Under the pieces are notes generated by a model. That model did not search any database. It was not told where the DNA came from and was given only the letters and a program-made list of their open reading frames with translations. DNA of 64,000 nucleotides from Escherichia phage I29. The position numbers were made by a program, and so were the translations under genes. Positions 4,105 through 28,737 of this stretch are shown here, piece after piece. Each line of letters opens with the position of its first letter. The first letter of the stretch is position 1. The stretch lies in sequence record ON286975; one strand, written 5' to 3'.

Positions 4105-4373
4105 TAGTAAAAGTCCTCTACTTGTGTGTAAGTGTTTTCAAAGTTTTCCAAAACAGATATCACATCGGATCTGTCAATATCATACGTGACTCTCCAGTTG
4201 TACGCAACCCTTTCTGCTGTTGCCTCTTCTGGCGCTAGTCGTCTGCTGGCATAAAAGAGTGTTGGAGTACACTTTCTTGCTTGCCCTCTAACTTTCCCAT
4301 AATAATATCTGTGAATATCTTTGTCAAAATTTAACTCTTTTTCTGCACGAAGTTCATATTGCTGGTATAACAT
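4104..4373 (-). CDS. hypothetical protein, 89 aa
   Basis: ORF whose stop overlaps the MoxR start codon; no motif recognised. Confidence 0.45.
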   Translation of the reverse strand: MLYQQYELRAEKELNFDKDIHRYYYGKVRGQARKCTPTLFYASRRLAPEEATAERVAYNWRVTYDIDRSDVISVLENFENTYTQVEDFY

Positions 4374-4417
4374 CTCTACTACTCCTTAAGCAGCATCCTT
4401 GCCGCCATTCCTGCCCA

Positions 4418-4798
4418 CTAAAATGCAGTCCGAATCCAGACAAGGTTCTTATCTGCCCAATCATAGAGGCAAGTCATTGCACTATTGAATTGCTCACACG
4501 GAGGATAATCTTCTTCCATCTGACGCATAGCAGAGCCTTGTGGGTAAAGCTCCCGTGCTGCAAACCACGCGTCGTAGTCATCAACGGTGTCGAAGTAGTA
4601 TACAACATCCTCCAACTCAGGATCGAACTTTGAACTATCAGGATCCAGTTGTTCAGGGAACTTGGAGCGTAACTTGCCAGCCACAATACTTGCCAACTCG
4701 CTAACATGCTTATTGTCCCACTCCACTAGCTTCCCGTCTTCAGTGATGCGTCCTAACCACTGATCATGAAGGTCAACTGTTGTCTTCCACCGAGCCAT
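4418..4798 (-). CDS. hypothetical protein, 126 aa
   Basis: ORF in tightly packed minus-strand block; acidic, no motif recognised. Confidence 0.5.
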   Translation of the reverse strand: MARWKTTVDLHDQWLGRITEDGKLVEWDNKHVSELASIVAGKLRSKFPEQLDPDSSKFDPELEDVVYYFDTVDDYDAWFAARELYPQGSAMRQMEEDYPPCEQFNSAMTCLYDWADKNLVWIRTAF

Positions 4799-4800
4799 TA

Positions 4801-5058
4801 TCAGTCCACCTCTTCTTCTCGTTGTAGTTCAAGATACCCGTAGGTCTGGACATCTTCAAGGGTGTGGAACTCCCCATCTGCCGCTAATGCACGAACAACT
4901 TGGCACAAAACCTTATGAGGAACTTCATCCAGACCAAGATTCAGTGCAGGGAACACCTTATCTAAGTCAACAAAATAAATGAACTGGAGCTCACCAGCTT
5001 CAAAAGGTGTATCTTCAATAAACATCTTCTCGGCATTAGTCAAGATCTGCACTTTCAT
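4801..5058 (-). CDS. hypothetical protein, 85 aa
   Basis: ORF in tightly packed minus-strand block. Confidence 0.45.
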   Translation of the reverse strand: MKVQILTNAEKMFIEDTPFEAGELQFIYFVDLDKVFPALNLGLDEVPHKVLCQVVRALAADGEFHTLEDVQTYGYLELQREEEVD

Positions 5059-5706: not shown

Positions 5707-6602
5707 ACCCTCGCATAAATTAAACTTGTATCAGTATACTTCTTTAATGGGTAAATATCCTGTCCATAGATGCAATCATTAAACACCTCATCTACCCAAA
5801 GGCTACACTTATATCCCATCATTTCTAAAACACTCATCTCTTCTTCGGTAAACTTATCACCACTCTTGCAAGATGTCAATACCTCATTCTGAACTCTTGC
5901 TACCTCGAATCGGTTATTGGCAATATCGCTATTGGCGATCAAATACTCACCTAGAGGGTGTGCGGCATTAAAGATGCACAGTGGACGGCTGACGTAATAG
6001 TCTCCGGGTGTATAAAAATTGTTGAGGTCTTTCACTAGAACATTCTTATCAGTCACTTCATTTATAACATCATGCATATCGCACATCTTTATATGTTTGA
6101 GGATTCCATCTCCCATCACAAAATAAAAACTTGCTGAGACACTTTCGGCATAGATCTTACTAGATCCGTTGTAGTTGTATTTTACTCGGATGCTAACGGG
6201 GGTTTTTCCTGTCGCGTTAGCCATCATCCAAAGAAATGGCAGCTCATACTTCTCCTCTGAGGAAACAAAAGGTGAGGTAGCCAGAGATCGAAAACCTCCA
6301 GAGAAGTTGAAAGTTACAGAACCGCTCCGGCGGTATGATACCGCGTATTCTACTTTTATATCGACGTACCCATTGGAATAGGTGTGTCCTTCATTATCTA
6401 AATATGTCCACTTATCAGACCCAGATACCAATCTACGCTCAATAACCTTCATCACTACAGGAATTAGCGGGTTGGTACAAACCGCTTTTGAAGTAGCTTT
6501 ATCATCTAAAGCCTCGTAAATTGCAGAAAGGATGTCCCCAGCTGAAAGATTGGTTGTTATGTCCTGTTTCCACCGCGTACTAAAACTGTTAAGATTTGCC
6601 AT
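5703..6602 (-). CDS. hypothetical protein, 299 aa
   Basis: First gene of minus-strand block next to divergent intergenic region; no motif recognised. Confidence 0.5.
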   Translation of the reverse strand: MANLNSFSTRWKQDITTNLSAGDILSAIYEALDDKATSKAVCTNPLIPVVMKVIERRLVSGSDKWTYLDNEGHTYSNGYVDIKVEYAVSYRRSGSVTFNFSGGFRSLATSPFVSSEEKYELPFLWMMANATGKTPVSIRVKYNYNGSSKIYAESVSASFYFVMGDGILKHIKMCDMHDVINEVTDKNVLVKDLNNFYTPGDYYVSRPLCIFNAAHPLGEYLIANSDIANNRFEVARVQNEVLTSCKSGDKFTEEEMSVLEMMGYKCSLWVDEVFNDCIYGQDIYPLKKYTDTSLIYARV

Positions 6603-6684
6603 AAGTAAGTGCTCCTATGTTAGTTTTCTTTCGAATGGGTGCACTATATTGTAGAGTTAGAGTAAAGTCAACACGTTTTTGATG

Positions 6685-6713
6685 TTGACATCTGTTGAGA
6701 CAATTGATACGAT
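6685..6713 (+). promoter_or_regulatory. putative sigma70-type promoter
   Basis: TTGACA (6685-6690), 17-nt spacer, TACGAT (6708-6713) in the divergent region, upstream of ATG 6745. Confidence 0.4.
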
Positions 6714-6744
6714 TTCTTCACTTACAGAGCACGAGAGACGACTC

Positions 6745-7722
6745 ATGAATCTTGAAAAATATTATACACCAGAAGAGTTAGAGCGCTTGCTCAAAAAATA
6801 TAGACGCAAACAGAATAACGCACGGAAACGAGATATAGAGTTCGACCTGTCATGGGAAGAATACCTCCTATTTGGTAAAAAACTTTTAGGAGATGGAGTA
6901 TGCGACTATACCCTTATACCTTTTGACATGCACACAGATGAAAACGGGCTGGGGAATCCTTTCTACCCATCTTTGGAGCGTATAGATGATGAAGGCCCTT
7001 ACGCAATTGACAATTGTTGTGTGGTAGGGTTGAGGTGCAATGCTCTGAAAGACTGTCTGGTAGATAAAAAGACTGCAATCCTGATTAAAGACGAAACTGA
7101 TCGAAAAATTGTCCAGCAGATGATGCTCCACCTGAGCGAAGAGCGTATGGAGAAATTGAAAGGTGATTATACTTTTGAAGATTTCATCTTGCAATATGGA
7201 ACGGAAGAGGATAAACTAGCACTATTTGACGAAGAGGAAGAAGATATGTCACCAATGCAGGACTTTAAAAATTTCATGGCTGATCGTGCAGCCAACAAAC
7301 ACATTTCAGACATCGTGAACGAGACTGTGACAGAAGAAGTTGAAGAACAGAACTCTGAAGAGGAAAAAGAGCCTCAGGAGGTCGAAGAGGGGATTGCAGA
7401 AGAGGTTCCTGCACTGCCTGATGATGTTGAGATTGCTAAGGCTTACACTTTCTATTGTCAAACGTTCTACGATGCAGGTATGAAAGTTGATCTGTCGTTC
7501 AGCCAATTTAAGAGTTCGTATATTCGCAAATGCTGTGCTTTAACTGGTGAACGTCTCGGAGCTGGACTTAAACCACTGTTGGTGACCGACTGGAATAAAG
7601 GTTTCACTAAAGGAAACTTTATGGTAGTATCTCCAATTATGGAGAAAGCTATGACAGATCTTATGAAGACCACCCGCATGACAATGACCGAGTTGGCAGG
7701 TATTTTCAAACACGTTAAATAA
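6745..7722 (+). CDS. protein with two degenerate HNH-like segments and an acidic linker
   Basis: ORF track starts at TTG 6679; ATG 6745 lies downstream of the putative promoter; segments CDY..PSLERID..NCC..CNALK and CALTGERL..DWNKG..KGN flank an E/D-rich linker; no canonical catalytic His seen. Confidence 0.45.
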   Translation: MNLEKYYTPEELERLLKKYRRKQNNARKRDIEFDLSWEEYLLFGKKLLGDGVCDYTLIPFDMHTDENGLGNPFYPSLERIDDEGPYAIDNCCVVGLRCNALKDCLVDKKTAILIKDETDRKIVQQMMLHLSEERMEKLKGDYTFEDFILQYGTEEDKLALFDEEEEDMSPMQDFKNFMADRAANKHISDIVNETVTEEVEEQNSEEEKEPQEVEEGIAEEVPALPDDVEIAKAYTFYCQTFYDAGMKVDLSFSQFKSSYIRKCCALTGERLGAGLKPLLVTDWNKGFTKGNFMVVSPIMEKAMTDLMKTTRMTMTELAGIFKHVK

Positions 7723-16500: not shown

Positions 16501-19212
16501 TGTAAAGATTGCAGGATTTACCCTTGCCTGACGCGGAGGGTAACCTGTAGTTTGGTTAAACCACAAATTACAAGAGTAATCCCTCATATAGTCATAATCA
16601 GAGTATTTGTTTACATCTTCGTTCCAACACATGTTTAGGTTGGTACCGCCCATGCATACAATATATTCTGCGACATACTTATCACTTCTGGTAGGAATAC
16701 CTATGAACCATCTGTTAACAGGCTCATCCCAAGCTGTGCGCTCATCTTTAACGCAGATAGCAATCCAGTCATGTGTTCCTGTTTTCTTGCACACATCTCG
16801 CTTCATACCGTAGTAGAACTCTTTAGTATTCGGCTCAGGTGCATTTATCAGATAACTCCATGCCTGATTTGCATAAGTCCCATTGGTGCGCGGATCATGA
16901 TCAAAGGCATACATGATGATCCTTTCCCCACCAAGATGTTCGCCAAGAGTAACTTTGACATTCACATCGCCGTAACCGTTGCGAACAACATCTATGTTGT
17001 CAATAGAGATGCCCCTAGGGGTGTAGGCAATTTTCAGGGAGTTATCCTCACTAGTGCCACCAAGGGTGATCCCTATGTTGTTTGTTGTCCCGTCGGCATA
17101 TCTTACTGTGGCTTCCCAGCGTATTCCGAAATATCCTGCATCATGGCTAACAATTTTCAGTGTACGAGCACCAGAGTTAGGTTTTCCAGGATCAGGCCAA
17201 GGATCTGGATGTTCATGGACAGTCAACGATGTCCCGTTTTGCTCGTTGACCTGCAACATTTTACCGCCTCTGCCGTTAGGGTTGAACTCCCACAAGGCTT
17301 GTGTTTTCACAACATTGTCATACGTGGTACGTCTCTGATCGTAGATCTCCTGAGTCACATCGTAGGTTACAGACCCGGCATCCATTCTATGGAGTCGTAC
17401 TATATACGATGTATCGCCTTCTACAGCAGGTTGAGCTGCGTTAAGCCCGAAGTATACAGTATCGTTGACATGGAACTGTTTGTTTCTACCGACAGTATGC
17501 CACTTGCCGTTGGACGGATACGCAGGAACTATGGTGTTCCAGTTCAAAGTCCTTGTCGTATGGGTTCTGCCTGTGCCATGCTTGTCATGATAGGTTATTT
17601 TTACAGAGTACAGGCCACGTCTGTTAACATTTCTGTTATACTGGGTAACAACAACTTCGTTGGCCCCGCCGTGGTTCCAGTTGGTGGAGAATTGGTAATT
17701 TGCATCTGTAACAACCGTACCTGCAGCATTTACCAGTTCAATCTTGTCAATAATGAACGTAGCCCCCTCTGGCTGAGGCTTCAACTTCATCTTGACCGTG
17801 TCACCAATGTAAATATTGCTAACGCTGCTAACACCGTTAACGTCGAAAATATCCTCAACACCCCAACTGTCTACCGGGACATTTTTATACCAATTCTCAG
17901 GAACCTCTGTGAACCCCTGGCTATTAAGTCTGCCTCCAAACAGGTTGTTAGAGCCTGCAAAACTTCCCCTTGGGATGCCTGACCACCAAAGTTTACCATT
18001 AACAACAGTAAAGGTCCCTAAGAAACCTTCTCTATGGATGCCTTGGAAATAAACACTCTCTGTCCAGCTAACTGGCAGGCGTTGCTCAACATATTTAGCT
18101 GTAGCAAGAGCTTGATAGTGGATAAAATCGGACCTAGGACTATTGTTTGCAGATTGTGCACCAATATCATTACACAAGTTGCGAGAGAATCCACGATACT
18201 GCTTGGTGCCATTATTGAAGAAAATGCCACTTGTGCCGTACCCACGAGCCATTATTACCTCATGGGTGTAGGTGATATTCAGTTCCCGCCATGTATCATC
18301 TCCCCAAATGTTTTGACCATAAAATACGTTAACAAGCTGCTGGTCATCGGGTCTATGCATCCTCTGTGTGGCAATTATTGCCCCGTTAGGACCGCACATA
18401 AACCCTTTCCACTCCTCATCTGCAGGAATGCCCCTCAAATCGTTACGAGTAATCTGCACAGGAGGCCAAACAAGGTCGTTTCTACTGTTATTTCTCAGAA
18501 AGTCGTATCCAGCAATCCAGAAACCTCTAGGACCACCGAAAATAACAGAGTTGTCATGCACCTCGCAGTTGATGCTTGGGTTTTTCCAAGGACCTGTTTC
18601 AGGATTTTCCGATGTCTCACCAATCTTTACAGGGGTTGCATGCTGATTTTTGTCAACATGAAGAGAGCCGTAAGTATTATTGCCAGAGCCGTACAGGTGA
18701 AGCATACCATCAGCCTCTGGTGCAGCAATTACCCACACTGTATTGTTTACGCCACCCATTACTTCAACAAGTCTCTCAGGATGGGTGTCCAAATGCAACC
18801 CTGTTACGATCTGTTCCGGCAAAGGTGTCCACTCTCTGACACAAACATCGTTTCCACCTGCTGCCTCCGATCCGATAAGACCAGCTGTGCAACCAATATA
18901 GAAAAATTTATTATCGAATGTGCGGATTACAAATGCACGGTCAGCTCTCCAAACATGGTCTACGTTCCAAGCTGCCTCATTAGGATAGTTTATTGTATCA
19001 AGATCTCCAGTCCGACACTCTCCGAACCTATTATAGCCAGTAATATTAAGCTGACCATCATCAAAAAGTATAGCTAAGCTATTTACATAGGATACTGTGT
19101 TGCTTGTACCATCACTGTTGTCTATTGGGTATGACAGAACAGCAAGTTCCTTAATTCCACCCCTCTTATCGAGGAAATGACGACCAAGTTTTAGCAAAGG
19201 GATTGGAAGCAT
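13576..19212 (-). CDS. giant virion-associated protein, 1878 aa (fibre/adhesin-like)
   Basis: Uninterrupted 5.6-kb ORF at distal end of the fibre block; N-terminal Gly-rich repeat segments of propeller type (LYGSGNNTYGSL); C-proximal Ig-like segment. Confidence 0.55.
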   Translation of the reverse strand: MLPIPLLKLGRHFLDKRGGIKELAVLSYPIDNSDGTSNTVSYVNSLAILFDDGQLNITGYNRFGECRTGDLDTINYPNEAAWNVDHVWRADRAFVIRTFDNKFFYIGCTAGLIGSEAAGGNDVCVREWTPLPEQIVTGLHLDTHPERLVEVMGGVNNTVWVIAAPEADGMLHLYGSGNNTYGSLHVDKNQHATPVKIGETSENPETGPWKNPSINCEVHDNSVIFGGPRGFWIAGYDFLRNNSRNDLVWPPVQITRNDLRGIPADEEWKGFMCGPNGAIIATQRMHRPDDQQLVNVFYGQNIWGDDTWRELNITYTHEVIMARGYGTSGIFFNNGTKQYRGFSRNLCNDIGAQSANNSPRSDFIHYQALATAKYVEQRLPVSWTESVYFQGIHREGFLGTFTVVNGKLWWSGIPRGSFAGSNNLFGGRLNSQGFTEVPENWYKNVPVDSWGVEDIFDVNGVSSVSNIYIGDTVKMKLKPQPEGATFIIDKIELVNAAGTVVTDANYQFSTNWNHGGANEVVVTQYNRNVNRRGLYSVKITYHDKHGTGRTHTTRTLNWNTIVPAYPSNGKWHTVGRNKQFHVNDTVYFGLNAAQPAVEGDTSYIVRLHRMDAGSVTYDVTQEIYDQRRTTYDNVVKTQALWEFNPNGRGGKMLQVNEQNGTSLTVHEHPDPWPDPGKPNSGARTLKIVSHDAGYFGIRWEATVRYADGTTNNIGITLGGTSEDNSLKIAYTPRGISIDNIDVVRNGYGDVNVKVTLGEHLGGERIIMYAFDHDPRTNGTYANQAWSYLINAPEPNTKEFYYGMKRDVCKKTGTHDWIAICVKDERTAWDEPVNRWFIGIPTRSDKYVAEYIVCMGGTNLNMCWNEDVNKYSDYDYMRDYSCNLWFNQTTGYPPRQARVNPAIFTDTQVFLTKQANEVQTFKNKYDPNKWFYNCYGAFFWGPGELPGGGSCFEAATYASDRFMGQVKKYKIIPGPETLGNAVDPYIIMSDLRSNMDGTSISMQVPVTNGYKRVVMIIKCDLIGKQVLAENGTSTHLFETALHYQFADSPFAGDKRISDTDAVRCKKFMLGGGWWWYEFDLTDKFTDTSKVVTGLRLDLGENMHKSVCDGTYGDPTIYLKYVSFEHPEDVVYGPKLRLFGNWIAKDRVGMGKKVRGFLMDAGTEDMLVNAVWPELPGTQWNNSAKSINWFNIHRAMWTTNCYLWKELNDGAFGFTGGRRMAIICWTTLQRCYDHDYEIGGRAWKNIRDRIITNFADPNGGGAYGFDCSRLIHLNGSSAYKKEGYSGSMIEWGLVKDARVLMGQQLAAAIGPNAVQSVKPAWFDIPLWSSGTPGTAAINPTTGDLEISWEDLKQVGGWDKTGYQVQWWRADGSLAADEFVKDNFYTMSSAKAQQLFGQATPSTITMSMCCKDNRTGALGPRVAKVFSGIKWNLPVQSVSWKQIGDNKLLVTPACQFNATLNVDPAVAANSAKASDFSVSNTAMADVRKIDTLNARITCKNTYGTFQIINNFTDADSKVVRTASQTLSLGTLAYAALITEQSATLQGGGAGKSIATPVWKPNEWVVFDLTVDFSSDNNWTWVRNCLSQLMGGPSSISDSHDSTDPSVFQVGKTHPETGETLPDRKYALVCISYGKADVTFSGTHTYNGTYNFSRKYSLKAGNIVDEVGVLYNPGNGIGIVGGKLQMQEPSITPSNVSGIRKTWESSNTNIATVDAATGLVTFKATGNVTIKFVVTDDAGRKTSSTSFTVKQMAPQWRMWIGTATNGAYPNPAGTSGMKTFSTSKPMEYGSGPKVGQMVYFGAYIPEIIGLPRSQLQLLFGAGVDDLATFGYSDNIEAARSSGWVGFRMESGKEGRILGTASIGVMFPGDQQYRLEAYATFSR

Positions 19213-19220
19213 TGTGTTCT

Positions 19221-19253
19221 CCAGATAAGAAAACCGCCCCGTCAGGAGCGGTT
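19221..19253 (-). terminator. intrinsic terminator-like hairpin
   Basis: Minus-strand AACCGC...GCGGUU stem followed by UUUCUUAU, between the 581-aa gene and the giant gene. Confidence 0.45.
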
Positions 19254-19262
19254 AGATATATA

Positions 19263-21008
19263 TTAACGTTGTGCAATTACTACGTCTACGATATCACCAA
19301 CACCACAATATGTTAATTGCAGCAAGGTAACACTATTAGCCTTGTTATTAATAACAGGCGTTGCCGACAGGATAGCATACTTATCGTGCAAAGTCACGTT
19401 GTGACCTACAGCATCCTGAATGACATAGATAACCGCAGTGAATGGATAAGGTTTATCTTCCGCTGATGTACCAGGCCATTGTCCTATTGTAAAATCCCCT
19501 TTCGCGTGGACAACATACATACTGGCCTGCCCGTTAGGTGTCCATGTCCCACTGGACGCGTCAACCTCCTCTAAATCAAAATCTACCTTTCCTGCGTGGA
19601 AAGTAGGGGCAGTAATGGTTTTACCCGCCTCAATTTCTTGAGAGGTGGTTATCTTGCCACTGGAGTTAATGCCATTACAAACAAAGTTGACATTAGAGAA
19701 GTCTGGCAGCCACCCAGTCACTGTGCCGGATATTTCAAGGTTGTGAAGGTAGGTGGTGCCCGTCCCTGCTGCGTTTAAACTAACATCTCCATTTACCTGC
19801 AAGTTTCTGGTAACGTTGCAGTTTTCAGAGTTTGCAGTTGTTGCAGTTAAAGTAGTGGTTGTCAGCTCGGTAATTACACCTTTGTTGGCTGTAAGCCCTT
19901 CCCCTTCAAAAGTTGCACGCTCATTGACTCTTAGGGTATTCAGAGCTATGTTTTGGATAGAGGCTGTACCTCGAATAACTACAGATCCGCCAACTTCTAA
20001 ATCACCATTTATTAATGCGTCCCCCGTGCTTTCAATATAGCTAGGGTAAATCATGGTGCCATCGACAGAGTAGGTTATCCCTGTAACAGTGCCTGTCACC
20101 TCAAGGTTCTTAACCCTGGTGGTTCCATCTACCTGCAATGTCGGTTCGGTTGCTGCCTTCATGGCATTACCACGAATGTACACGTAGTCAAAAAAGTTAT
20201 TACCTAGACCATCAAAATGCACATCGTTATTATTAGCCACTGGTTTCCCAGAAGTTATAGTGTCAGCTATAACCCTGTGGGTGGACACTTCATGAGGTTG
20301 CAGCTCTGTGCTTCTCCAGTCTGCATGCTTAGGATCACTCCACGCAAAAGTAAGTGTAGAAGTATTTGCCGTGAGGATTAGGTTCCTGAAGCGTGCAGTA
20401 GAATCTGCTCCATTAACAGACCCATGTAAGGTGAGTGTGCCACCAACTATAGTGTTAGCAAGTTCTGTAAGACCTTTTACCACCAAAGACCCTACAGTAA
20501 CTTTCATTCCCTCCATGGCTTCAAATATGCTATCCACATAGTCAACAACAAACTCTGTGTTTGCTATAGACTCGGATTTGTCGTCCATTGGAGGCGTAGG
20601 TACTCGCGGGTCACCTTCGAACCTCGGACTGTTAAGTTTTGCGTAGTATTTTGCCATTACTGCAGAATCGGTATATAATCTCCAGTTTGGAGATTGTGAA
20701 GGATCTGCTGGCATTCTAACCGGGTTAGATTTTGATGCTGCGGGAGCGTACCACCACTGAGGGCCTGTGTCCCCTTTAAACTCGTACAGCTGGTTAAAAA
20801 CTGTTGTGGATGCACCATACGCCCAAGGGATCGGTGGCGTTTTAAAATAAAGGGTGTCAAGCATGGCTTTTCGTACCGTAGGGATGGTGGTCCCATCCTC
20901 TACGACAACTTCATCCACAGCGTTACCGTTGACAATCAGGTGCAAACGCTCAGAATCAACAATTACTTGATCTACCGCCTGCTCAAAGCTTGTCATGTCT
21001 TGCGCCAT
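19263..21008 (-). CDS. tail fibre/spike-like protein, 581 aa
   Basis: Repetitive Thr/Gly/Asn-rich beta-type sequence typical of fibre shafts; located in fibre block. Confidence 0.45.
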   Translation of the reverse strand: MAQDMTSFEQAVDQVIVDSERLHLIVNGNAVDEVVVEDGTTIPTVRKAMLDTLYFKTPPIPWAYGASTTVFNQLYEFKGDTGPQWWYAPAASKSNPVRMPADPSQSPNWRLYTDSAVMAKYYAKLNSPRFEGDPRVPTPPMDDKSESIANTEFVVDYVDSIFEAMEGMKVTVGSLVVKGLTELANTIVGGTLTLHGSVNGADSTARFRNLILTANTSTLTFAWSDPKHADWRSTELQPHEVSTHRVIADTITSGKPVANNNDVHFDGLGNNFFDYVYIRGNAMKAATEPTLQVDGTTRVKNLEVTGTVTGITYSVDGTMIYPSYIESTGDALINGDLEVGGSVVIRGTASIQNIALNTLRVNERATFEGEGLTANKGVITELTTTTLTATTANSENCNVTRNLQVNGDVSLNAAGTGTTYLHNLEISGTVTGWLPDFSNVNFVCNGINSSGKITTSQEIEAGKTITAPTFHAGKVDFDLEEVDASSGTWTPNGQASMYVVHAKGDFTIGQWPGTSAEDKPYPFTAVIYVIQDAVGHNVTLHDKYAILSATPVINNKANSVTLLQLTYCGVGDIVDVVIAQR

Positions 21009-21017
21009 GATTTCTCC

Positions 21018-21284
21018 TTAAGCTTTTTGCTCTTCGTTTTTAACGTGGTCAGGGTGCTGGCAACCCCACCGGAGCGAGATGAATTTGCTAATAAGCTGGG
21101 GGCAGGCTACTGAAGGTGCATATATCCACGCATACCATTCAGGAAGCGTATCATTGTACCCCATATGAATAAACACCCCAGTCATCACCGCCATGCCTAT
21201 GTTTGACCATAGCTTAGATTGGGACACTTTCGTAGGGTCATCAGATGCCGCAACCAGTCCCCATAAAAACTGAGTTAGTTTCAT
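21018..21284 (-). CDS. small membrane protein, 88 aa
   Basis: Two to three hydrophobic helices and a charged C-terminus (HVKNEEQKA). Confidence 0.4.
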   Translation of the reverse strand: MKLTQFLWGLVAASDDPTKVSQSKLWSNIGMAVMTGVFIHMGYNDTLPEWYAWIYAPSVACPQLISKFISLRWGCQHPDHVKNEEQKA

Positions 21285-21295
21285 TTACCCTCTTT

Positions 21296-22342
21296 TTAAG
21301 CATAAGATATAGTGATCCATTGACCATTTACAAGTTTTTGGATAGCACCTGTCCAGTAATCACCTTGATAAGGGTGTTTATAAGCGTAGTTACCCGAGCA
21401 CATCACATGTCCAGGGTAGACTCTTGACTCTCTGTAGGTGGTTTTGAAACGGTTTGCTATCCTTACATCATCAACCCCTCTGCTGGGCATAGGGATAGTA
21501 AGGTTACCACTACTGTCTGCGCCGTTACCATTTACCCTGCGGACCACGTTTCTTCCACCAACTGTTGCATATTGACCCCTGACTGTTTCATCGTTACAAT
21601 CAACTCTTCCACCTATTTGAGCGCTTCCACAGGATTGTTGTCCATTAACAGTAGCTCTTGGTATCGTAACTGCATTGGCATTTGCAGAGGAACTTTTTGC
21701 ATCGTTGCATTCAAGATTTCCTTGGATAGCCAGTCTTGCACGGTTGGCAGTTATAGCATTGAGCTTCATAGCCGAAAACACAGGATGCCCGCCAGAAGGT
21801 TGAAATCTCCAACGGAACCCGTCTATTTGGTGAGAAGGATCATCAAGGTCTGTGCCGTCAGCACCACCGATGTTGTCCATAATCCAGAAGTCCATCGTCG
21901 TCTTGTCTGGAGTTATGGTGGTATATATTGCCGCATTGTCTGTTGACGCAGATGCAAACTCGATTCTTTGAAGGCCTAAAGTTTGAGTCTGAGTCATTAT
22001 GTCTCCAGACTTGTCAACATACAGATCGTCCATTTCTTCAGGCGAGTATACATTGAGAACTTGACGTGCAGCAGCTTTGTCTGGAACGTCTGCTAGATTA
22101 TTAGTGACCCTTAAGAATCTATTATCCCATCCTGGGACAACATCTTCTGTTAAATGCTTTAACCACGCAGAAAGCATGTGAAGTTCAAAGTTAACAACTT
22201 CACATGCCACTCTTTGTGTCATATCCCAACCTTTCAATCTCTCTTCTTTTTTTGGTTGAGACTTATTCAACTCTCCCGTATTTTCAAGCACAACATCCTG
22301 ATTGGCCCAAATATCAAGAGGGATAACTGGTTTAGTCATCAC
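21296..22342 (-). CDS. tail fibre protein (paralog A), 348 aa
   Basis: Paralogous to 23354..24394: shared N-terminus (PLDIWA / PLEIWA, KGWD) and C-terminus LQKLVNGQWIT. Confidence 0.6.
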   Translation of the reverse strand: MMTKPVIPLDIWANQDVVLENTGELNKSQPKKEERLKGWDMTQRVACEVVNFELHMLSAWLKHLTEDVVPGWDNRFLRVTNNLADVPDKAAARQVLNVYSPEEMDDLYVDKSGDIMTQTQTLGLQRIEFASASTDNAAIYTTITPDKTTMDFWIMDNIGGADGTDLDDPSHQIDGFRWRFQPSGGHPVFSAMKLNAITANRARLAIQGNLECNDAKSSSANANAVTIPRATVNGQQSCGSAQIGGRVDCNDETVRGQYATVGGRNVVRRVNGNGADSSGNLTIPMPSRGVDDVRIANRFKTTYRESRVYPGHVMCSGNYAYKHPYQGDYWTGAIQKLVNGQWITISYA

Positions 22343-22428
22343 GTTCTCCTGAGAAAATTCCTTAGGACTATTTTAACACTTTAGGGAACAAAATGCAAGA
22401 ACGGAGTCCTTTCCGTTCTGACCTTTGT

Positions 22429-22743
22429 TTACCTTTTACTATGCTCTACAAGCATGTGCAAAATCTTTTGTACATCGGCTCTGATGCCGGAGACATCTGT
22501 CCTGACATCCTGCTTAAGGTCGTTAATATCGGCCTCTAGCTTGCTTAACCGGGTCTCTATAACGGAATCAAGTTTATCTTTTGTAACCATACTGTTTTTC
22601 ACTAAGATGAGGTCTTTCTCCAGCTCATCCAACCTCTTGGAAATGCCTTTCCATTTGGTGTGCCACTGGTTGAAAGCCCATACACAGATCGGGACAACGG
22701 TACCCATGCAGATACCGTACAATGCCGCCAAATCCAACTCCAC
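22429..22743 (-). CDS. membrane-anchored coiled-coil protein, 104 aa
   Basis: N-terminal hydrophobic helix LAALYGICMGTVVPICVWAF followed by charged coiled-coil-like segment. Confidence 0.4.
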   Translation of the reverse strand: MELDLAALYGICMGTVVPICVWAFNQWHTKWKGISKRLDELEKDLILVKNSMVTKDKLDSVIETRLSKLEADINDLKQDVRTDVSGIRADVQKILHMLVEHSKR

Positions 22744-22754
22744 AACACCTCCTC

Positions 22755-23339
22755 TTAGAGGGTAGGTCGCTCCGGGAAGAAAATGTCAGGGGCTTTAGAT
22801 GTATCTATTTCAAGAAGTTTTACCCTGTACATTTTCAAATCTCTGATGTTACGTTTCTGGTCATCAGTAAGATCATATTCAAGGTCAATCATGTCTTGAT
22901 AGGCACCAATTCTAGCAGTAGCCCAAGCAAGTTCTGTCTCTATGACACCCTCTGCCTGTTGAACAAAGAATTCATTGTCTGTGACAAATTCATCACCAAC
23001 TAAACGCAAAGCGTCGTGGTGAAGCATAATGTTTTCTGGTACCTCTTCTTTTTTGGCGATAACCACACGAAGACCTGGAGCAGGCCATAAGGCATCAGGT
23101 TCTTCTGTAGATGTCTTAAGAATTCCCTTCTCGTCAACAAGTAGGAAGATACACCCTGGATTTTCTTGTCGTAATGTTCGTGACTGCACATACCAATCAC
23201 CATCATCATTACGTAAAAAATACCCAGTGTATGCGGTGTAATCCTCGACCTCTTGAGGGGTCAGCTCCTTGGTTTCCTTGTTGGAGTAGTATTCGCCAGA
23301 TCCCGGTTGGTAAAGTTTAAACTCTTGAAGTATTTTCAT
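22755..23339 (-). CDS. tail fibre assembly protein (Tfa-like chaperone)
   Basis: C-terminal segment YRVKLLEIDTSKAPDIFFPERP resembles the conserved C-terminus of tail fibre assembly proteins; lies immediately downstream of a fibre gene. Confidence 0.6.
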   Translation of the reverse strand: MKILQEFKLYQPGSGEYYSNKETKELTPQEVEDYTAYTGYFLRNDDGDWYVQSRTLRQENPGCIFLLVDEKGILKTSTEEPDALWPAPGLRVVIAKKEEVPENIMLHHDALRLVGDEFVTDNEFFVQQAEGVIETELAWATARIGAYQDMIDLEYDLTDDQKRNIRDLKMYRVKLLEIDTSKAPDIFFPERPTL

Positions 23340-23353
23340 GCTAGTCCTCCGAT

Positions 23354-24394
23354 CTATGCATAATTAACAGTGATCCATTGACCATTTACAAGTTTTTGTA
23401 AAGGTCCTGCCCAGTAGGTTGAACCACGCATCTCTTTTTTGTCACCGAAATGCCAGCCTGTGACAACGTAGCCGTTGCGGATTGGAGATTCAGAAACGCC
23501 GTCCACAAGTCTTGCACCGATTCTGATGTCTTGCACACCTGTCTGCGGGATAGTGATCGTTACATCACCGTTACCGTTAGCCGTCACTCCATTCACGGAG
23601 CGCACCACATTTCTGTTACCGACAACACAGTGCTGGCTTCTTACAACCATACTGTCACAACTTGCACCACCATTAACATATACTGACCCAGCCGTCAACT
23701 GACTAGCCACATTACAGTTGGTGAATGTTGCTGTATTGCTGATAGTAAGGTTATTGCACCTCATGTTATCGACAACTTCAACATTGCCTACCACTTTCAA
23801 CAGTGCACGATTAGCCGTGATCGCGTTAAGGTACATCAAAGTGAACTCTGGATTAATATCCGGCTGAGTTGGCTGGAATCTCCAACGAAACGCATCTACT
23901 GTAGATGTACCACCATCATCAAACGACCCGGTATTATCACTTAACCCAAAGTCGAGAGTTGTCTTATCTGGGCCAATAGTTGTCTCTATCCAAGCCTTAT
24001 CTGTCTCGGCAGCTTTAAAGTTGATACGTTGCAACCCCAAGGGGCCTGTCATTGTATCACCTGTAACTTTTACATACCTGGCGTCTGCCTCTTCCTTAGT
24101 GATAATCCCAAGGTTTCTACGGGCAACAGGGATGTTCAAAAGATCGCTCAAGTTATTATCACGTACCAGATAACGGCCTTCTTGAGCGGGGATCTGCTCG
24201 TCAGCAATGTATTTTGCCCAAGTTCCGAGCATATTGAAAATATAGTTAAGTTCTTCACAGGATGGCTTTTGACCAAGATCCCAACCTTTTCTCCACAAAT
24301 CATCAATCGGGCGTAGCCTGTTCTGTCTGTGGGTGTTAGGCAGAACCTGATCCTCCTCTGCCCAAATCTCTAATGGAAAACTAGGTTTTGACAT
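23354..24394 (-). CDS. tail fibre protein (paralog B), 346 aa
   Basis: Paralog of 21296..22342 (see above); followed by Tfa-like gene. Confidence 0.6.
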   Translation of the reverse strand: MSKPSFPLEIWAEEDQVLPNTHRQNRLRPIDDLWRKGWDLGQKPSCEELNYIFNMLGTWAKYIADEQIPAQEGRYLVRDNNLSDLLNIPVARRNLGIITKEEADARYVKVTGDTMTGPLGLQRINFKAAETDKAWIETTIGPDKTTLDFGLSDNTGSFDDGGTSTVDAFRWRFQPTQPDINPEFTLMYLNAITANRALLKVVGNVEVVDNMRCNNLTISNTATFTNCNVASQLTAGSVYVNGGASCDSMVVRSQHCVVGNRNVVRSVNGVTANGNGDVTITIPQTGVQDIRIGARLVDGVSESPIRNGYVVTGWHFGDKKEMRGSTYWAGPLQKLVNGQWITVNYA

Positions 24395-24406
24395 TTTATC
24401 TCCTGA

Positions 24407-26479
24407 TTATGAGAAGTCTGGAGGGACAACATCTTCTACATACCCTTTCAGAGCAACCTGCCCCATATGAAGCACGGTAGAATCTCTGGCTGTAACAGTG
24501 ATGCTGTCAGACATTACTTGCGGGTATGCCCACACATACTGTTTTACCTCAGGGTATCTATACTCTATGGTTGCCATGTTTCCGCAGATACATCTCCATA
24601 AAAATTCTTGGTAATTCCTGGTTGGGTCGTAGCCATATACCGGAGCAAGCTCTTTACTAGGAACGAACCCTGCAAGGTATTGTATTTCAGACGGTTGCCA
24701 ACCTAACTTAACGATAGGTATGTTTACAGACTCTTTTGCCTTTTCAATACCTCCCTGCATCACCCAATCGTAGCACTCGGTGCAGAAGAAATCAAGAGCA
24801 CCTGCTTCCTTTTTATATTGGTCAGCAAGGTTCAGCTTTTGCGTAAGCTCGGTTTCCATGATGGTTGGGAAAAACAGCAAAGCTGTCATCTGAGCTGATG
24901 CAGCGTGTGCCTTTATTGCCTTTGAAATAGCCGCAATACGAGCGCCAAGCTTACCACGACAAAATGCTACATACTTGTCGTAAACACCGCCAGTTTTAGG
25001 ATCGTCAATAGTCCCAATATCTAATGCATACTCACCTGTCTCATCATAAAACGCCTGCTTTGTAGGGTAATCATAAATACAAGGTCTACGAGTATCGGTA
25101 TTGTACCACCACCACGGTTCACCAACCTGCATAATCACTGGCAGGTTGTTTCTCATAGCGGCTGATGCAAAATTCTTAAATACTGCAGTAAGGAAATTCA
25201 TACCCTCTTCAATGGTTGGAGACAGGAGGTAGCTACAGGGTGTATACCCTGTTTTAGCGTAGTTATCGTTCCAGTCTCTTTGGGTCCATTCCAACGGGCA
25301 GGCATCGCTGAAAAGCTCAAAACTTACAGATTGCATAACGTCGAAGTTATGTCGTTTGGCATTGTACATAAAATCATCATGCCATTTATAAGCTGCAGCG
25401 TTTAGCGCCCCTGTTCTGTTTATAGACCATTGGGTTCCTGACCATGTGTAGTCATAATAATGACTCATACCAACATAATGGTTTATGGTTCCGGTATAGC
25501 CCAGACGCTTGATATTGTTCAACACCCTTAAAGGAGATACGTTCCACATATCGTCATATGCGGTGCAGATCCCAACGTCGTGCTCTTTAACCTGAATATT
25601 GTTAAGTTGCATCATTTTCCAGCCTGTGTCTGGCTGGAGCAGATCTAGGCGCAACTCACACTCTACATTTTCCGTTCTCGGGTCTGTGCTATTACTTACC
25701 CAGTCTTTAGGCATAAGCGGTATTAAAATCCTTCTCACCTGTCGAGGATCAACACCCATCATGTTGTTGTTCTGATCCATCCCGACGCAGTCCTCGAAAT
25801 CAATATGAATCTCTGCAACATTCTTATCCTCTGAGATGCTGACAGCATATTGAGCTAAAGGAACATAGATGATTGTGCCATCAACAAGGTCTACAGTCAT
25901 AATCATCTTTTCAGGGGTGGAGAAGTTGCTGGCATTGGTTATTGACATTCTGAACCAAAGCTTGGTGTTTCTCATCTCATAGTGATCATCAAACCCAATA
26001 CCGAAATGGTCATACTTGTCAACTGTTTCCCAAATGCACCCAGCCATACCTCCATATGTTCTTGACACTAAACGGTTAATACAACAGTTGTTATCTGCAA
26101 CAATACAGGTACTTTCAGTCTGCTGAGTAGTTGTAACCCAATACCTTGGGTGAAACATTCTCTCCTCAACAGTATCCCAAGATATCCTGTCAAGATTCTC
26201 ATCTGAAACTATTGTACATTTCGCCCTTTGTGTTCCAATCATCACCCCTTGAGATTTTGATGAAAACTCCATAAAGAAGCTTCTTGGCAACCTGTTGGGT
26301 AATTTGTCAACAATTTCCACAGGGATCTCAATACTGGTTGCCCCAATTGGGATAGTTACATCGCCCTCAACATGATTATAATCCCTACCAGGAACGGCAG
26401 TATCCTGAACTGTTCGGTAATGAAACTGTGCAGCCATTGTAGAGTAATCACGGTAAGGTTTAAAAACAGCTGTTGCCAT
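24407..26479 (-). CDS. tail-associated protein, 690 aa, with Calx-beta-like N-terminal motif
   Basis: N-terminal VPGRDYNHVEGDVTIPIGATSIEIPVEIVD resembles Calx-beta repeat; Trp-rich central region of unknown function. Confidence 0.45.
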   Translation of the reverse strand: MATAVFKPYRDYSTMAAQFHYRTVQDTAVPGRDYNHVEGDVTIPIGATSIEIPVEIVDKLPNRLPRSFFMEFSSKSQGVMIGTQRAKCTIVSDENLDRISWDTVEERMFHPRYWVTTTQQTESTCIVADNNCCINRLVSRTYGGMAGCIWETVDKYDHFGIGFDDHYEMRNTKLWFRMSITNASNFSTPEKMIMTVDLVDGTIIYVPLAQYAVSISEDKNVAEIHIDFEDCVGMDQNNNMMGVDPRQVRRILIPLMPKDWVSNSTDPRTENVECELRLDLLQPDTGWKMMQLNNIQVKEHDVGICTAYDDMWNVSPLRVLNNIKRLGYTGTINHYVGMSHYYDYTWSGTQWSINRTGALNAAAYKWHDDFMYNAKRHNFDVMQSVSFELFSDACPLEWTQRDWNDNYAKTGYTPCSYLLSPTIEEGMNFLTAVFKNFASAAMRNNLPVIMQVGEPWWWYNTDTRRPCIYDYPTKQAFYDETGEYALDIGTIDDPKTGGVYDKYVAFCRGKLGARIAAISKAIKAHAASAQMTALLFFPTIMETELTQKLNLADQYKKEAGALDFFCTECYDWVMQGGIEKAKESVNIPIVKLGWQPSEIQYLAGFVPSKELAPVYGYDPTRNYQEFLWRCICGNMATIEYRYPEVKQYVWAYPQVMSDSITVTARDSTVLHMGQVALKGYVEDVVPPDFS

Positions 26480-27165
26480 TAACCCTCCTGTCTAGTTGCG
26501 TTTACTGTAATACTTTCACAATAAATGGTTGTGGTGTCCCAATCAGGTCTTACGTCAGGAACATATAGCAAAGTAGCCAGCCCACCAACTCCGAATTGGC
26601 TTTCTTCCCACACTGATCCGAAGCCAAGAGCTGTAGAGTCCCCTTCAAAACCAAAAGCTTGCCCTTGCGATTCTGTAAGACGCAAATGACAAGGTAATGG
26701 TAGCATATCTAAGATCTGATCGATAGACTGCAATATGTCAAAGCAAGTTTTTCTAATATTTATGTCAAACCTGAAGTTGTCTCCTTTCCACGTATCGAAA
26801 TTGTCTCTTCCGAACAATTGTCGCAAGGTGGAGATGACATCTTCGCGAGTCCCGCCCCTTGATGCTGCGGCCTGCTGAATAATTAGTGTGGCACGAAAAT
26901 CAGCATCTGAAAGTCCATTCCTAAGAATACCAAGTTGATTACCAACTTCGTCAAGGTATCTTCCGCTGGCATTGTTAAGCAATCTTCCTTCAGCCAAACC
27001 TACCAGCATCTTATCAACATCCTCCAACCTTTTAAGGTATACGGTTAAGAATGTGACTAAATTAACCTTCTCAGCCAGAAAATCTCCAGGTAGGTAGTCA
27101 AGACCTCCCTGAACAAAATCTGGCAGAGCGTGGATGTGGTTAACATCCGACTTAATCTCTGCCAT
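26479..27165 (-). CDS. hypothetical tail/baseplate protein, 228 aa
   Basis: ORF in baseplate/fibre block, start overlapping upstream stop. Confidence 0.45.
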   Translation of the reverse strand: MAEIKSDVNHIHALPDFVQGGLDYLPGDFLAEKVNLVTFLTVYLKRLEDVDKMLVGLAEGRLLNNASGRYLDEVGNQLGILRNGLSDADFRATLIIQQAAASRGGTREDVISTLRQLFGRDNFDTWKGDNFRFDINIRKTCFDILQSIDQILDMLPLPCHLRLTESQGQAFGFEGDSTALGFGSVWEESQFGVGGLATLLYVPDVRPDWDTTTIYCESITVNATRQEG

Positions 27166-27176
27166 ATCTCGCCGCC

Positions 27177-27554
27177 TTAAATAGTTTGTTGGAAAGTTAT
27201 ATTACTTTCGTCGAGGTCAAACACCTCGGTCATGTTCGCAACAATATCGTTTGTAGTGTAAGCTTCATCAGAAGCTCCTACGGATTTAACTTGAATTACC
27301 AGTCTATTAAATCTGCCTATTGACACAGCAGCAGATGCAGCACCTACCAATTGGATATTATACAACGTATCTGCAACATCCAGTCCGTTAACAACCTGCA
27401 AAAGAGCCTCTATAATGGCATCTTTTTCGGTTGTTAACGGACTGGATGTTGCAGATACGTTGTATAATATCCAATTGGTAGGTGTTTGCCTTGGAGTAAT
27501 AAATTCTTTCAGTTTGACCGTCAGATGTAGTGACATCGTAGAAAATATTACCAT
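27177..27554 (-). CDS. ORF fragment, possibly C-terminal part of the split baseplate-J-like gene
   Basis: +1 frame relative to the upstream ORF, overlapping it by 167 nt; reads in frame through both arms of the 56-bp inverted repeat. Confidence 0.35.
   Translation of the reverse strand: MVIFSTMSLHLTVKLKEFITPRQTPTNWILYNVSATSSPLTTEKDAIIEALLQVVNGLDVADTLYNIQLVGAASAAVSIGRFNRLVIQVKSVGASDEAYTTNDIVANMTEVFDLDESNITFQQTI
27341..27484. repeat. perfect 56-bp inverted repeat with 32-bp spacer
   Basis: 27341-27396 is the exact reverse complement of 27429-27484; flanking bases 27340/27485 and 27397/27428 do not pair. Confidence 0.9.
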
Positions 27555-28668
27555 AAGTCCTGTTCGTACAGGCTATAGTTTGGTAAAGTGCTTGGCAAAT
27601 GTCTTCCGTTGCACCACCAAACACAACCACTTGGAACTTGTAAGGAGGTATACCTTTAGCATCAGTTTTATCGGTGTTGTTGGAGAACACTCTCACTTTC
27701 TCAACACCTTTCACCTCGCTTACAGCGCTAAGGATTGCAGGACGGGTAGCCTTAGATGTTAACTGTTTTGTGCTGGAAGCTCTTAAGCGATACTCTGAGT
27801 CTTTCTCAACATCCCTGCCCTCATTGAATCTTTCTCGGTTGGTAAGCTTGATAAATCCACTAGGAGTAGGTGACATTGTTGTCACGGTTTCTGCTTCTCT
27901 TGACAGCTCACCAGCCTCGTTAGCGATAACATCCAGTGTGATAGTTCTTTCCCCTACAATCGGGGATACTCTGAAATCTACCCTGCTGTTAAGCCCAACT
28001 TGATCAAGATTCGAATTGTACCCTATCCACAACGTTCCTGTCAACATATCGATCTGAATCAAATCGTCGTTCAACAGGGTTGTATTATCGACAATGAATT
28101 GCTTAATCTCTCCGTAAAAGCTTGGCAAATCAGAAGAGTCCAGAGACTTATCTGTTAAAACCAGGCTTTTTGTTTTGATACTTCCATCTGTCTGGTTGGT
28201 AATTTGGAAGTTGTATTTCCCAATCCTTAGGTCTGGAGCATTTATTCTGTGAGCAATAAGATTCCCTGCTACTTGCACATCGTTGCTAAGAACAAAGTTG
28301 CCACTGTCCAGCGTATAAGTTTTGGAATCATAAATCATATTGTACGGCACAGTTGTGTTGATTGTCAACTGGCAGGTACCTGATGATTTAGAACGGCCTC
28401 TTCGGTAAATACCCTGTCTTCCAAGAAGCTCATCTAGGTAAATACCTTCTGCCCCATACAGCGTCTGTGATGCGTATACAGATGCTGCCATAAGAATAAG
28501 TTGATACTCTCGCTCGTTGAAGATAGTGGTCAGCTTATCTGCAACGGAGTTACTCTGTACGTTGAAGTTTTCGCCAAAAGCACGGATCAGGCTTTGCTTA
28601 GTTTCAACGATTAGGTCATTTAGGGTTGGTATAACGAAACCAGCCTCTGTCAATCCATACTTAGCCAC
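27388..28668 (-). CDS. baseplate J-like protein (apparently truncated at the inverted repeat)
   Basis: N-terminus MAKYGLTEAGFVIPTLNDL... follows the pattern of baseplate J (gp47/gpJ)-family proteins; stop codon lies 6 nt into the second repeat arm. Confidence 0.55.
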   Translation of the reverse strand: MAKYGLTEAGFVIPTLNDLIVETKQSLIRAFGENFNVQSNSVADKLTTIFNEREYQLILMAASVYASQTLYGAEGIYLDELLGRQGIYRRGRSKSSGTCQLTINTTVPYNMIYDSKTYTLDSGNFVLSNDVQVAGNLIAHRINAPDLRIGKYNFQITNQTDGSIKTKSLVLTDKSLDSSDLPSFYGEIKQFIVDNTTLLNDDLIQIDMLTGTLWIGYNSNLDQVGLNSRVDFRVSPIVGERTITLDVIANEAGELSREAETVTTMSPTPSGFIKLTNRERFNEGRDVEKDSEYRLRASSTKQLTSKATRPAILSAVSEVKGVEKVRVFSNNTDKTDAKGIPPYKFQVVVFGGATEDICQALYQTIACTNRTYGNIFYDVTTSDGQTERIYYSKANTYQLDIIQRICNIQSVNNRKRCHYRGSFAGC

Positions 28669-28737
28669 GTCACTCCTCCGGTATGAAAATCTCTACAAGG
28701 TATTTTACCAAATTTTGTAACAATAGTCAATCTGAGC

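Follow-up and report, generated by a model that had tools for sequence, protein, structure and literature searches.

The closest described relatives of the locus examined here, positions 21296 to 24394 of a 64,000-nucleotide (nt) stretch of Escherichia phage I29 (sequence record ON286975; the whole stretch is referred to below as the window), are the short tail fiber genes of phage rV5 and of the BASEL phages. In rV5, gp30 (347 amino acids, aa) and gp33 were described as T4 gp12-like proteins with 42.3% identity to each other, gp30, gp32, and gp33 were detected in virions by mass spectrometry, and recognition of two lipopolysaccharide (LPS) chemotypes was suggested (Kropinski 2013, PMC3606486). 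The Vequintavirinae sensu stricto were subsequently reported to have two paralogous short tail fibers and a chaperone, with homology to the phi92-like locus as well as to GpS/GpU of Mu, and all of these phages were found to need the waaG-dependent first outer-core glucose (Glc I) (Maffei 2021, PMC8594841, S5D Fig). The waaG/Glc I requirement was shown genetically for LL12 too. In phi92, the corresponding protein gp147 forms fiber III, which is Mu-like and sits on wedge protein gp145. Cryo-electron microscopy of phiTE showed residues 3 to 92 of its short tail fiber to be a trimeric joint bound to wedge protein 1 (PMC11972413).

The locus in the window consists of two short tail fiber genes, designated STF-A and STF-B, that flank a gene for a tail fiber assembly protein (Tfa) and a gene for a 104-aa membrane-anchored protein. 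The window belongs to a Vequintavirus, an rV5-like Escherichia coli myophage. A megablast search with positions 19000 to 27000 matched 118 phage records, nearly all of them Vequintavirus, and 110 of the 118 covered most of the query at 90 to 99.5% identity. The nearest phages over this interval were A6-1 (99.5% nucleotide identity) and DrSchubert/Bas50 (99.2%). The rV5 and BASEL loci have the same genes in the same order with the same sizes (346, 194, 104, 347, and 88 aa) and the late promoter P030, and the locus in the window showed no essential difference from them (99% nucleotide identity to DrSchubert). The observation of paired fibers and its interpretation as two tips have therefore already been published; the basic finding adds nothing beyond the 2013 and 2021 publications, and the additions made here (replacement of a gene cassette, asymmetry of evolutionary rates, and gene conversion between tips) are incremental.

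We consider it probable, at roughly 0.72, that the locus encodes a terminal-receptor apparatus made up of two homotrimeric short fibers, one shared chaperone, and two LPS-core specificities. STF-A and STF-B would form two separate homotrimeric fibers, homologous to phi92 fiber III (gp147) and distantly to Mu S. Each fiber would dock on the baseplate wedge via an N-terminal domain of about 100 aa and bind the LPS core via a C-terminal Mu S-like tip, and the single Tfa (gp32) would fold both tips, recognizing the common sequence ...QKLVNGQWIT. Every gene in the region is on the minus strand, and the features of the locus are as follows.

23354..24394, minus strand: STF-A, short tail fiber of 346 aa; ortholog of rV5 gp33, annotated as "short tail fiber protein" in DrSchubert; phrog_4465, E = 2e-171
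22755..23339, minus strand: Tfa, tail fiber assembly protein of 194 aa; ortholog of rV5 gp32; Caudo_TAP
22429..22743, minus strand: 104-aa protein with a transmembrane (TM) segment and a helical hairpin; rV5 gp31; phrog_5345 (unknown function)
22398..22419, minus strand: terminator-like hairpin, then TTGCATTTTGTT, between the gp31 gene and STF-B; from a terminator scan
22369..22378, minus strand: late-promoter-like motif TGTTAAAATA, directly upstream of STF-B; equivalent of rV5 P030
21296..22339, minus strand: STF-B, short tail fiber of 347 aa; ortholog of rV5 gp30; phrog_4465, E = 8e-166
21018..21284, minus strand: conserved small protein of 88 aa; rV5 gp29; phrog_1322, "membrane protein"
21297..21358: 62-nt direct repeat at the 3' end of STF-B; partner at 23355-23416, the 3' end of STF-A

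The initial annotation had described the two fiber genes as clear paralogs with shared termini and a divergent center. Their paralogy was borne out by pairwise alignment: BLASTP gave 153 identities over 356 positions (43%; 59% positives; E = 1e-94), and the similarity was full-length and far beyond chance rather than limited to short motifs. Both proteins also matched phrog_4465, "tail fiber protein," end to end. The described pattern of similarity did not hold, as the best-conserved parts were the middle and the last 14 aa. In 30-aa windows, identity between STF-A and STF-B spanned 27 to 67%, with the highest values (50 to 67%) at residues 105 to 200 and minima (27 to 30%) at residues 45 to 75, 204 to 240, and 290 to 325, and only the last 14 aa of the C terminus were near-identical. 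The shared motif given as LQKLVNGQWIT is common to both proteins from its second residue on (QKLVNGQWIT); the first residue differs, the sequence being LQKL in STF-A and IQKL in STF-B. The start of STF-B also had to be revised. The GTG at 22342 is not conserved, rV5 having GCG there, and the conserved start is the ATG at 22339, located 6 nt after AGGAG, which yields the 347 aa annotated in rV5 and DrSchubert. About 30 substitutions separate gp30 of the window from that of A6-1.

STF-A can be divided into an N-terminal baseplate-docking domain (about residues 1 to 108), a shaft, and a Mu gpS-like tip (residues 287 to 346), and STF-B has the same three-part architecture. In phmmer searches against the PDB, residues 1 to 108 of STF-A matched the N terminus of the short tail fiber of phiTE (residues 1 to 111; 9cuy chain c; E = 1.4e-19), as did residues 2 to 84 of STF-B (9cuy; E = 1.2e-9), and residues 286 to 343 of STF-A matched Mu S (5yvq_A; E = 1.7e-6). 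BLASTP aligned STF-A with Mu S at 36% identity over 61 aa (E = 1e-6); the alignment of STF-B was in the same register and weak (28% identity; E = 0.009). Neither fiber matched a Pfam family above noise, so the domains were assigned from PHROGs, from sequence matches in the PDB, and from one fold search.

The fold search was made with an AlphaFold2 model of STF-B built from a 51-sequence alignment. The predicted fold of the distal tip matched the Mu fiber, and the confidence of the whole-chain model was low (predicted local distance difference test [pLDDT], 54.5; predicted template modeling score, 0.23), as expected for a monomer of a trimeric fiber. The only significant match of the model in a Foldseek search of the PDB was the Mu fiber-chaperone complex (5yvq_A; E = 3.9e-6; probability, 0.99), and 62 columns were aligned with Mu fiber 8ju3 at a root mean square deviation of 2.9 Å.

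Comparison with the characterized fibers shows where the locus agrees with each and where it departs. The fibers of phi92 (gp147) and phiTE (9cuy) have the homologous docking domain and the C-terminal motif QK.VNG.W.T, they are downward-pointing fibers on a wedge protein, and their genes are followed by genes for Tfa and for a protein with a TM segment and helices. However, phi92 and phiTE each have a single fiber copy, and the phiTE fiber, which has 554 aa, contains a coiled coil and Ig-like domains and belongs to a flagellotropic, LPS-independent phage. T4 gp12 has the role that is presumed for the fibers of the window, the irreversible binding of the LPS core by short fibers attached to the baseplate, but its chaperone is gp57A rather than a Caudo_TAP protein. 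The short fibers of T4 are retracted against the baseplate, whereas those of phiTE point downward (PMC11972413), as does fiber III of phi92. No T4 gp12 chain was recovered in the PDB phmmer searches with both fibers at E values up to 1, nor was one among the Foldseek hits; an HHpred probability of 98% to 1PDI was reported for one domain (Kropinski 2013, PMC3606486).

The presence of a Tfa-like gene between the two fiber genes was confirmed by a match to Pfam family PF02413 (Caudo_TAP) with E = 1e-11 and 45.6 bits, compared to a cut-off of 22.1. The protein also matched phrog_136 (E = 1e-36) and aligned with Mu U along its entire length at 23% identity (E = 0.004). The gene is located directly downstream of STF-A, STF-B being followed instead by the 88-aa gene, and it is the sole chaperone gene of the locus. 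Its product is presumed to serve both fibers. We infer the use of gp32 by STF-B because the C-terminal segment is common to both paralogs. Tfa probably remains bound to the fibers in the virion, as the analogy with Mu U suggests.

The system of Mu (S/U; 5yvq and 8ju3) is similar in that an LPS-core-binding fiber with a homologous tip is encoded with a Caudo_TAP chaperone gene directly downstream and two tips are present per genome, although identity with Mu S extends over only about 60 aa. Because the fiber and chaperone are homologous to S and U of Mu, which has two alternative sets of tip and chaperone, a switch like that of the Mu G segment could be considered, with each particle carrying one of two alternative fibers as the result of DNA inversion or another on/off mechanism. 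In Mu, Gin-mediated inversion exchanges S-U for S'-U', there is one chaperone per tip, and each particle has one fiber type. In the window, in contrast, both fiber genes are complete, co-directional, and full-length, each with its own N terminus and its own promoter, and the single chaperone gene is on the same strand. No inverted repeats flank 21296-24394, no invertase was found among the open reading frames (ORFs) between the fibers, and no recombinase ORF was found in the annotated neighborhood. Furthermore, both proteins were found in rV5 virions. Thus, a switch of this kind is effectively refuted.

The spacer between the gp31 gene and STF-B is 86 nt long and holds the hairpin and the late promoter. 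The predicted folding energy of the hairpin was −17.5 kcal/mol (z = −3.47), and none of 200 shuffled sequences folded as well. The two-fiber arrangement is also present in two more distant metagenomic relatives, L012 (a Logan SRR24653873 contig of 135 kb, with paralogs at 3913-4953 and 6001-7065) and L013, and the stem of the hairpin was kept in both of them, 4 of its 7 pairs having changed on both sides among the three lineages. The promoter motif TGTTAAAATA has one mismatch to the rV5 late consensus TGGTAAAATA, such matches occurring 20 times in the window compared to 6.2 expected, and the core TGnTAAAATA was invariant in the window, rV5, L013, and L012. In rV5, P030 was listed as a late promoter upstream of gene 30 (Kropinski 2013, PMC3606486, Table S4C). 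The combination of a hairpin and a late promoter in the spacer suggests that STF-B forms a late transcription unit of its own. In this scheme, a long late operon that includes STF-A, Tfa, and gp31 would be transcribed from a promoter preceding the wedge gene (motif at 28701-28710), the hairpin would then attenuate transcription, and STF-B, gp29, and a 581-aa fiber would be driven by P030.

For this genome, it is plausible that the paralogs carry alternative receptor-binding tips, as proposed in the initial annotation: the tips are among the most divergent parts (27 to 33% identity from residue 287 to the end, except for the last 14 aa), and both proteins were found in virions of the related phage rV5. 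The proposal fares less well in L012, in which the tips are near-identical. Over the last approximately 60 residues, STF-A and STF-B were 80 to 93% identical in L012 compared to 28 to 52% in the window, and both L012 paralogs end in ...QKLVNGQW.T.QTL. A tree of residues 1 to 285 separated A and B into two clades, each with 100 of 100 bootstraps, whereas in the tip tree L012A joined L012B, also with 100 of 100. Conflicting body and tip trees are what gene conversion between paralogs produces, and the conflict indicates conversion that in L012 extended over the whole tip. Judged from these sequences, not every lineage keeps its two tips distinct.

In the window, the 3' ends of both fiber genes bear the mark of a similar process on a smaller scale. 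The 62-nt direct repeat (repeat family D1) has 84% identity with an identical run of 29 nt, and the third positions of conserved codons were identical in 11 of 12 cases within the repeat compared to 65 of 153 overall. The 29-nt core was the same in A and B of the window, and likewise in A and B of L013, although the two genomes differ from each other in it at 3 synonymous sites. Gene conversion of tips fits the recognition of both tips by one chaperone; the Tfa of L012 is only 48% identical to that of the window, and in L012 the tips of A and B have changed in step.

A second patch was located at codons about 31 to 50 of both fibers, around KGWD...Q...CE in the docking domain, where third positions were identical in 8 of 8 conserved codons compared to 42% overall. 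This patch may be a second gene-conversion tract or may reflect a nucleotide-level constraint, the statistics being marginal after correction for the number of windows.

Because the tips of L012 are near-identical and the bodies distinct, different tips are not the sole reason that both copies have been kept. The paralogs might have been retained for structural reasons, with the fibers occupying different or alternating baseplate positions or differing in length or geometry, in which case the relevant difference would lie in the N terminus and shaft and the tips would be interchangeable. The L012 tips, 80 to 93% identical while residues 1 to 285 stay in separate A and B clades, are consistent with this possibility, as is the divergence of the N-terminal 75 aa (27 to 50% identical between A and B compared to 67 to 97% among A orthologs), and the separate promoter of STF-B would allow a different dosage. 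However, both N termini match the same phiTE docking domain, phi92 and phiTE have one such fiber and one site per wedge, and the strong divergence of the tip bodies in the window and in L013 looks like divergence of specificity. A purely structural reason for keeping both fibers seems unlikely.

Concerted evolution of the tips within genomes would also be required if gp30 and gp33 co-assembled as heterotrimers to give one kind of mixed fiber with one shared tip architecture, and the 50 to 67% identity of residues 105 to 200 and the near-identical last 14 aa are compatible with co-assembly. In the window, however, residues 290 to 325 and the docking domain are only about 27 to 37% identical, and the genes have separate promoters. 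To our knowledge, all solved relatives (Mu S and the phiTE short tail fiber) are homotrimers. Mixed fibers are very improbable.

Several observations weigh against two homotrimeric fibers with two specificities. In K-12, receptor genetics show a single requirement (Glc I), and it was argued that the same secondary receptor is possible for all of these phages (Maffei 2021, PMC8594841). Given the nearly identical tips of L012, two specificities cannot explain in general why both genes have been kept. Two fibers with homologous docking domains would have to share six wedge sites. Finally, with a model of STF-B that was of low confidence overall, it is the tip alone (pLDDT, 65 to 87) that backs the fold match. 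Nevertheless, the apparatus of two homotrimeric fibers served by one chaperone is the reading that we prefer. With different tips in this genome, two LPS-core specificities are likely to be present on the virion, and irreversible adsorption would then be triggered by a wider range of E. coli core types.

The gene order was also compared with that of more distant phages. A single short fiber was present in Av-05 (Avunavirus), AV124 (Mydovirus), and a Seunavirus-like Salmonella phage and likewise in W70 (Septuagintavirus), CR3 (Certrevirus), and an Erwinia Henunavirus. In all six genera, the genes downstream of the single fiber encode, in order, Tfa, a protein homologous to that of 104 aa, a polytopic membrane protein of about 130 to 157 aa (phrog_7451), a protein homologous to that of 88 aa, and a large fiber. 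The start of the polytopic gene overlaps the preceding stop in 5 of the 6 loci, the two being 68 nt apart in CR3. Av-05 and the window have even the upstream 690-aa gene in common, and the sole difference is that the window has the 86-nt spacer and STF-B where Av-05 has the polytopic gene. Gene order thus indicates that STF-B replaced the membrane-protein gene in the ancestor of the Vequintavirus group and that the polytopic member was lost.

The two copies have diverged at different rates. STF-A was 87% identical to its ortholog in L013 and 73% identical to that in L012, compared to 78% and 49%, respectively, for STF-B. Identity to the single-copy fibers of Av-05, AV124, and R7 was 44 to 48% for STF-A and 37 to 39% for STF-B. 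The slower divergence of STF-A and its closeness to the single-copy fibers mark it as the ancestral-type copy and STF-B as a derived, faster-evolving copy. STF-B may have come from a duplication of STF-A or from a relative; monophyly of A plus B received 81% with the full alignment and 29% with residues 1 to 285. Both copies were at least 95% identical in about 115 public Vequintavirus genomes, in agreement with Maffei 2021, and a wider sequence collection holds a 78% allele and 46 to 49% alleles of STF-B.

Two simpler accounts of STF-B were rejected. The first, that it is a decaying duplicate, was ruled out by this conservation of at least 95% in about 115 genomes, by its own promoter, and by detection of the protein by mass spectrometry. 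The second, a recent duplication, was ruled out because, apart from the two short patches, third-codon positions approach saturation (65 of 153 identical) and because both copies are present in lineages that are 50% different in neighboring genes.

The initial annotation had left the role of the 104-aa protein unclear, and its description as membrane-anchored and helical was upheld. The protein has one strongly hydrophobic segment (Kyte-Doolittle maximum over 19 residues, 1.91, in residues 1 to 26), and AlphaFold2 predicted with a pLDDT of 87.6 two long helices at residues 5 to 50 and 55 to 103, a membrane helix running into a helical hairpin. Homologs were found in 223 phage records, and the gene comes right after Tfa in the six genus-level relatives. 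In the phi92-like phage EmilieFrey, the gene for a TM and helical protein after Tfa was a weak match (22% identity; phrog_5345, E = 0.0018), and in phi92-like phages the other two genes of the group are not adjacent. In rV5, gp31 was listed as "membrane protein, 1 TMD" (transmembrane domain) and is not among the proteins reported from virions (Kropinski 2013, PMC3606486). Searches of Pfam with the 104-aa protein returned coiled-coil noise below cut-offs alone, Foldseek against the PDB returned nothing below an E value of 0.4, the hits being generic helical hairpins, and a large sequence database returned close relatives only (at least 83% identity), all labeled "hypothetical."

The 104-aa protein bears some likeness to the Mu releasin gp25 (DUF2730). 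The two are of similar length (99 aa for gp25), each has about 4 residues before an N-terminal TMD and a cytoplasmic helical domain of about 75 aa after it, Mu gp25 being N-out/C-in, and both are products of late genes. A releasin was nevertheless rejected, as there was no match to PF10805 at E values up to 0.1 and hhalign of the family alignment against Mu gp25 gave a probability of 5.9%. In addition, the rV5 endolysin gp89 is encoded at 71.6 kb, about 49 kb from gp31, and its N terminus (MKLDKNVQRKAFLDM...) is without a hydrophobic segment; the endolysin has no signal-arrest-release domain. An i-spanin was also rejected: hhalign against Mu gp23 gave a probability of 2.3%, no other minus-strand ORF of at least 50 aa was found within or adjoining the gene, and the acidic N terminus and basic C-flank of the TMD favor an N-out, C-in topology. 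The spanin pair of rV5-type phages was assigned next to the terminase gene (PMC7344957), which also counts against this candidate. Our best guess, held with low confidence, is that the 104-aa protein is a non-structural inner-membrane protein with a cytoplasmic hairpin that functions in lysis control or in membrane tethering of short-fiber or baseplate assembly.

The 88-aa protein shows a degree of conservation that is unusual among small phage proteins: across 8 relatives with an overall identity of only about 50%, 34 columns of the alignment are invariant, and the motifs among them include WSN.G and EWY.W.YAP.V..P.L.S..I.LRWG. A homolog was present in 373 phage records, those of phi92-like and phAPEC8-like phages among them. 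Although its PHROG is labeled "membrane protein," no 19-aa window of the protein reaches a Kyte-Doolittle value of 1.2, and it was not called as a holin because its hydropathy is below the transmembrane threshold. Neither the polytopic nor the 88-aa protein matched a Pfam family, and their PHROGs carry no function. The three-gene module was located at 5638-6701 in L008 (Av-05) and was also present in L003, L004, L005, L006, and L010; the corresponding interval of the window is 21018-22743.

A broader conjecture would combine these observations. The STF-B cassette (hairpin, late promoter, and fiber gene) may have taken the place of the middle gene in an ancient module of three genes, one that served as a holin or lysis-timing system or as a membrane platform for short-fiber assembly. 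Recurrent tip conversion would then keep the fibers compatible with one chaperone and erase the difference in specificity in some lineages, and the paralogs might be kept for their baseplate positions or even as heterotrimers. Taken as a whole, this scenario is speculative and quite unlikely.

In DrSchubert, the region begins with genes for a baseplate protein, a 228-aa protein, a 690-aa lateral tail fiber with glycosidase/deacetylase domains, and a short tail fiber and continues with those for the tail fiber chaperone, a 104-aa hypothetical protein, the other short tail fiber, an 88-aa hypothetical protein, and a 581-aa lateral tail fiber. The rV5 counterparts are ORFs 36 to 28. In the window, the 690-aa gene (24407..26479, minus strand) lies upstream of STF-A; its product has Calx-beta, NCTSP_N, and NCTSP TIM-barrel domains (Pfam, E = 4e-80) and is an N4 gp65-like deacetylase fiber. 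Fibers of this type have been assigned in the literature to binding of NGR/ECA-type glycans, the primary receptor.

The baseplate wedge gene (27177..28668, minus strand) contains a perfect 56-nt inverted repeat with arms at 27341-27396 and 27429-27484 and a 32-nt spacer. The second arm takes the place of a different 55-nt sequence in A6-1 and DrSchubert, which have an intact coding sequence of 1491 nt, and the net gain of 1 nt splits the gene into ORFs of 426 and 125 aa. The microhomologies CACCTACC and ACAACC flank the patch, which was found in no phage record (best, 80.5% identity). The patch resembles the product of a template-switch (quasi-palindrome) mutation or of an error in assembly. 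The wedge protein that it splits is the expected docking site of the short tail fibers.

Among public records MG065645-MG065689, 16 to 21 labeled as "Campylobacter phage" (host, C. jejuni) were 99% identical to rV5-like phages over the locus, which suggests mislabeled hosts or contaminating coliphages.

The rV5-like phages are frequent candidates for therapy and biocontrol, and their short tail fibers set the final, irreversible step of host recognition. A shared chaperone, an independently promoted second fiber, and the exchange of tips by gene conversion are useful for the engineering of host range: a tip could be swapped without a change of chaperone if the last approximately 14 residues were kept.

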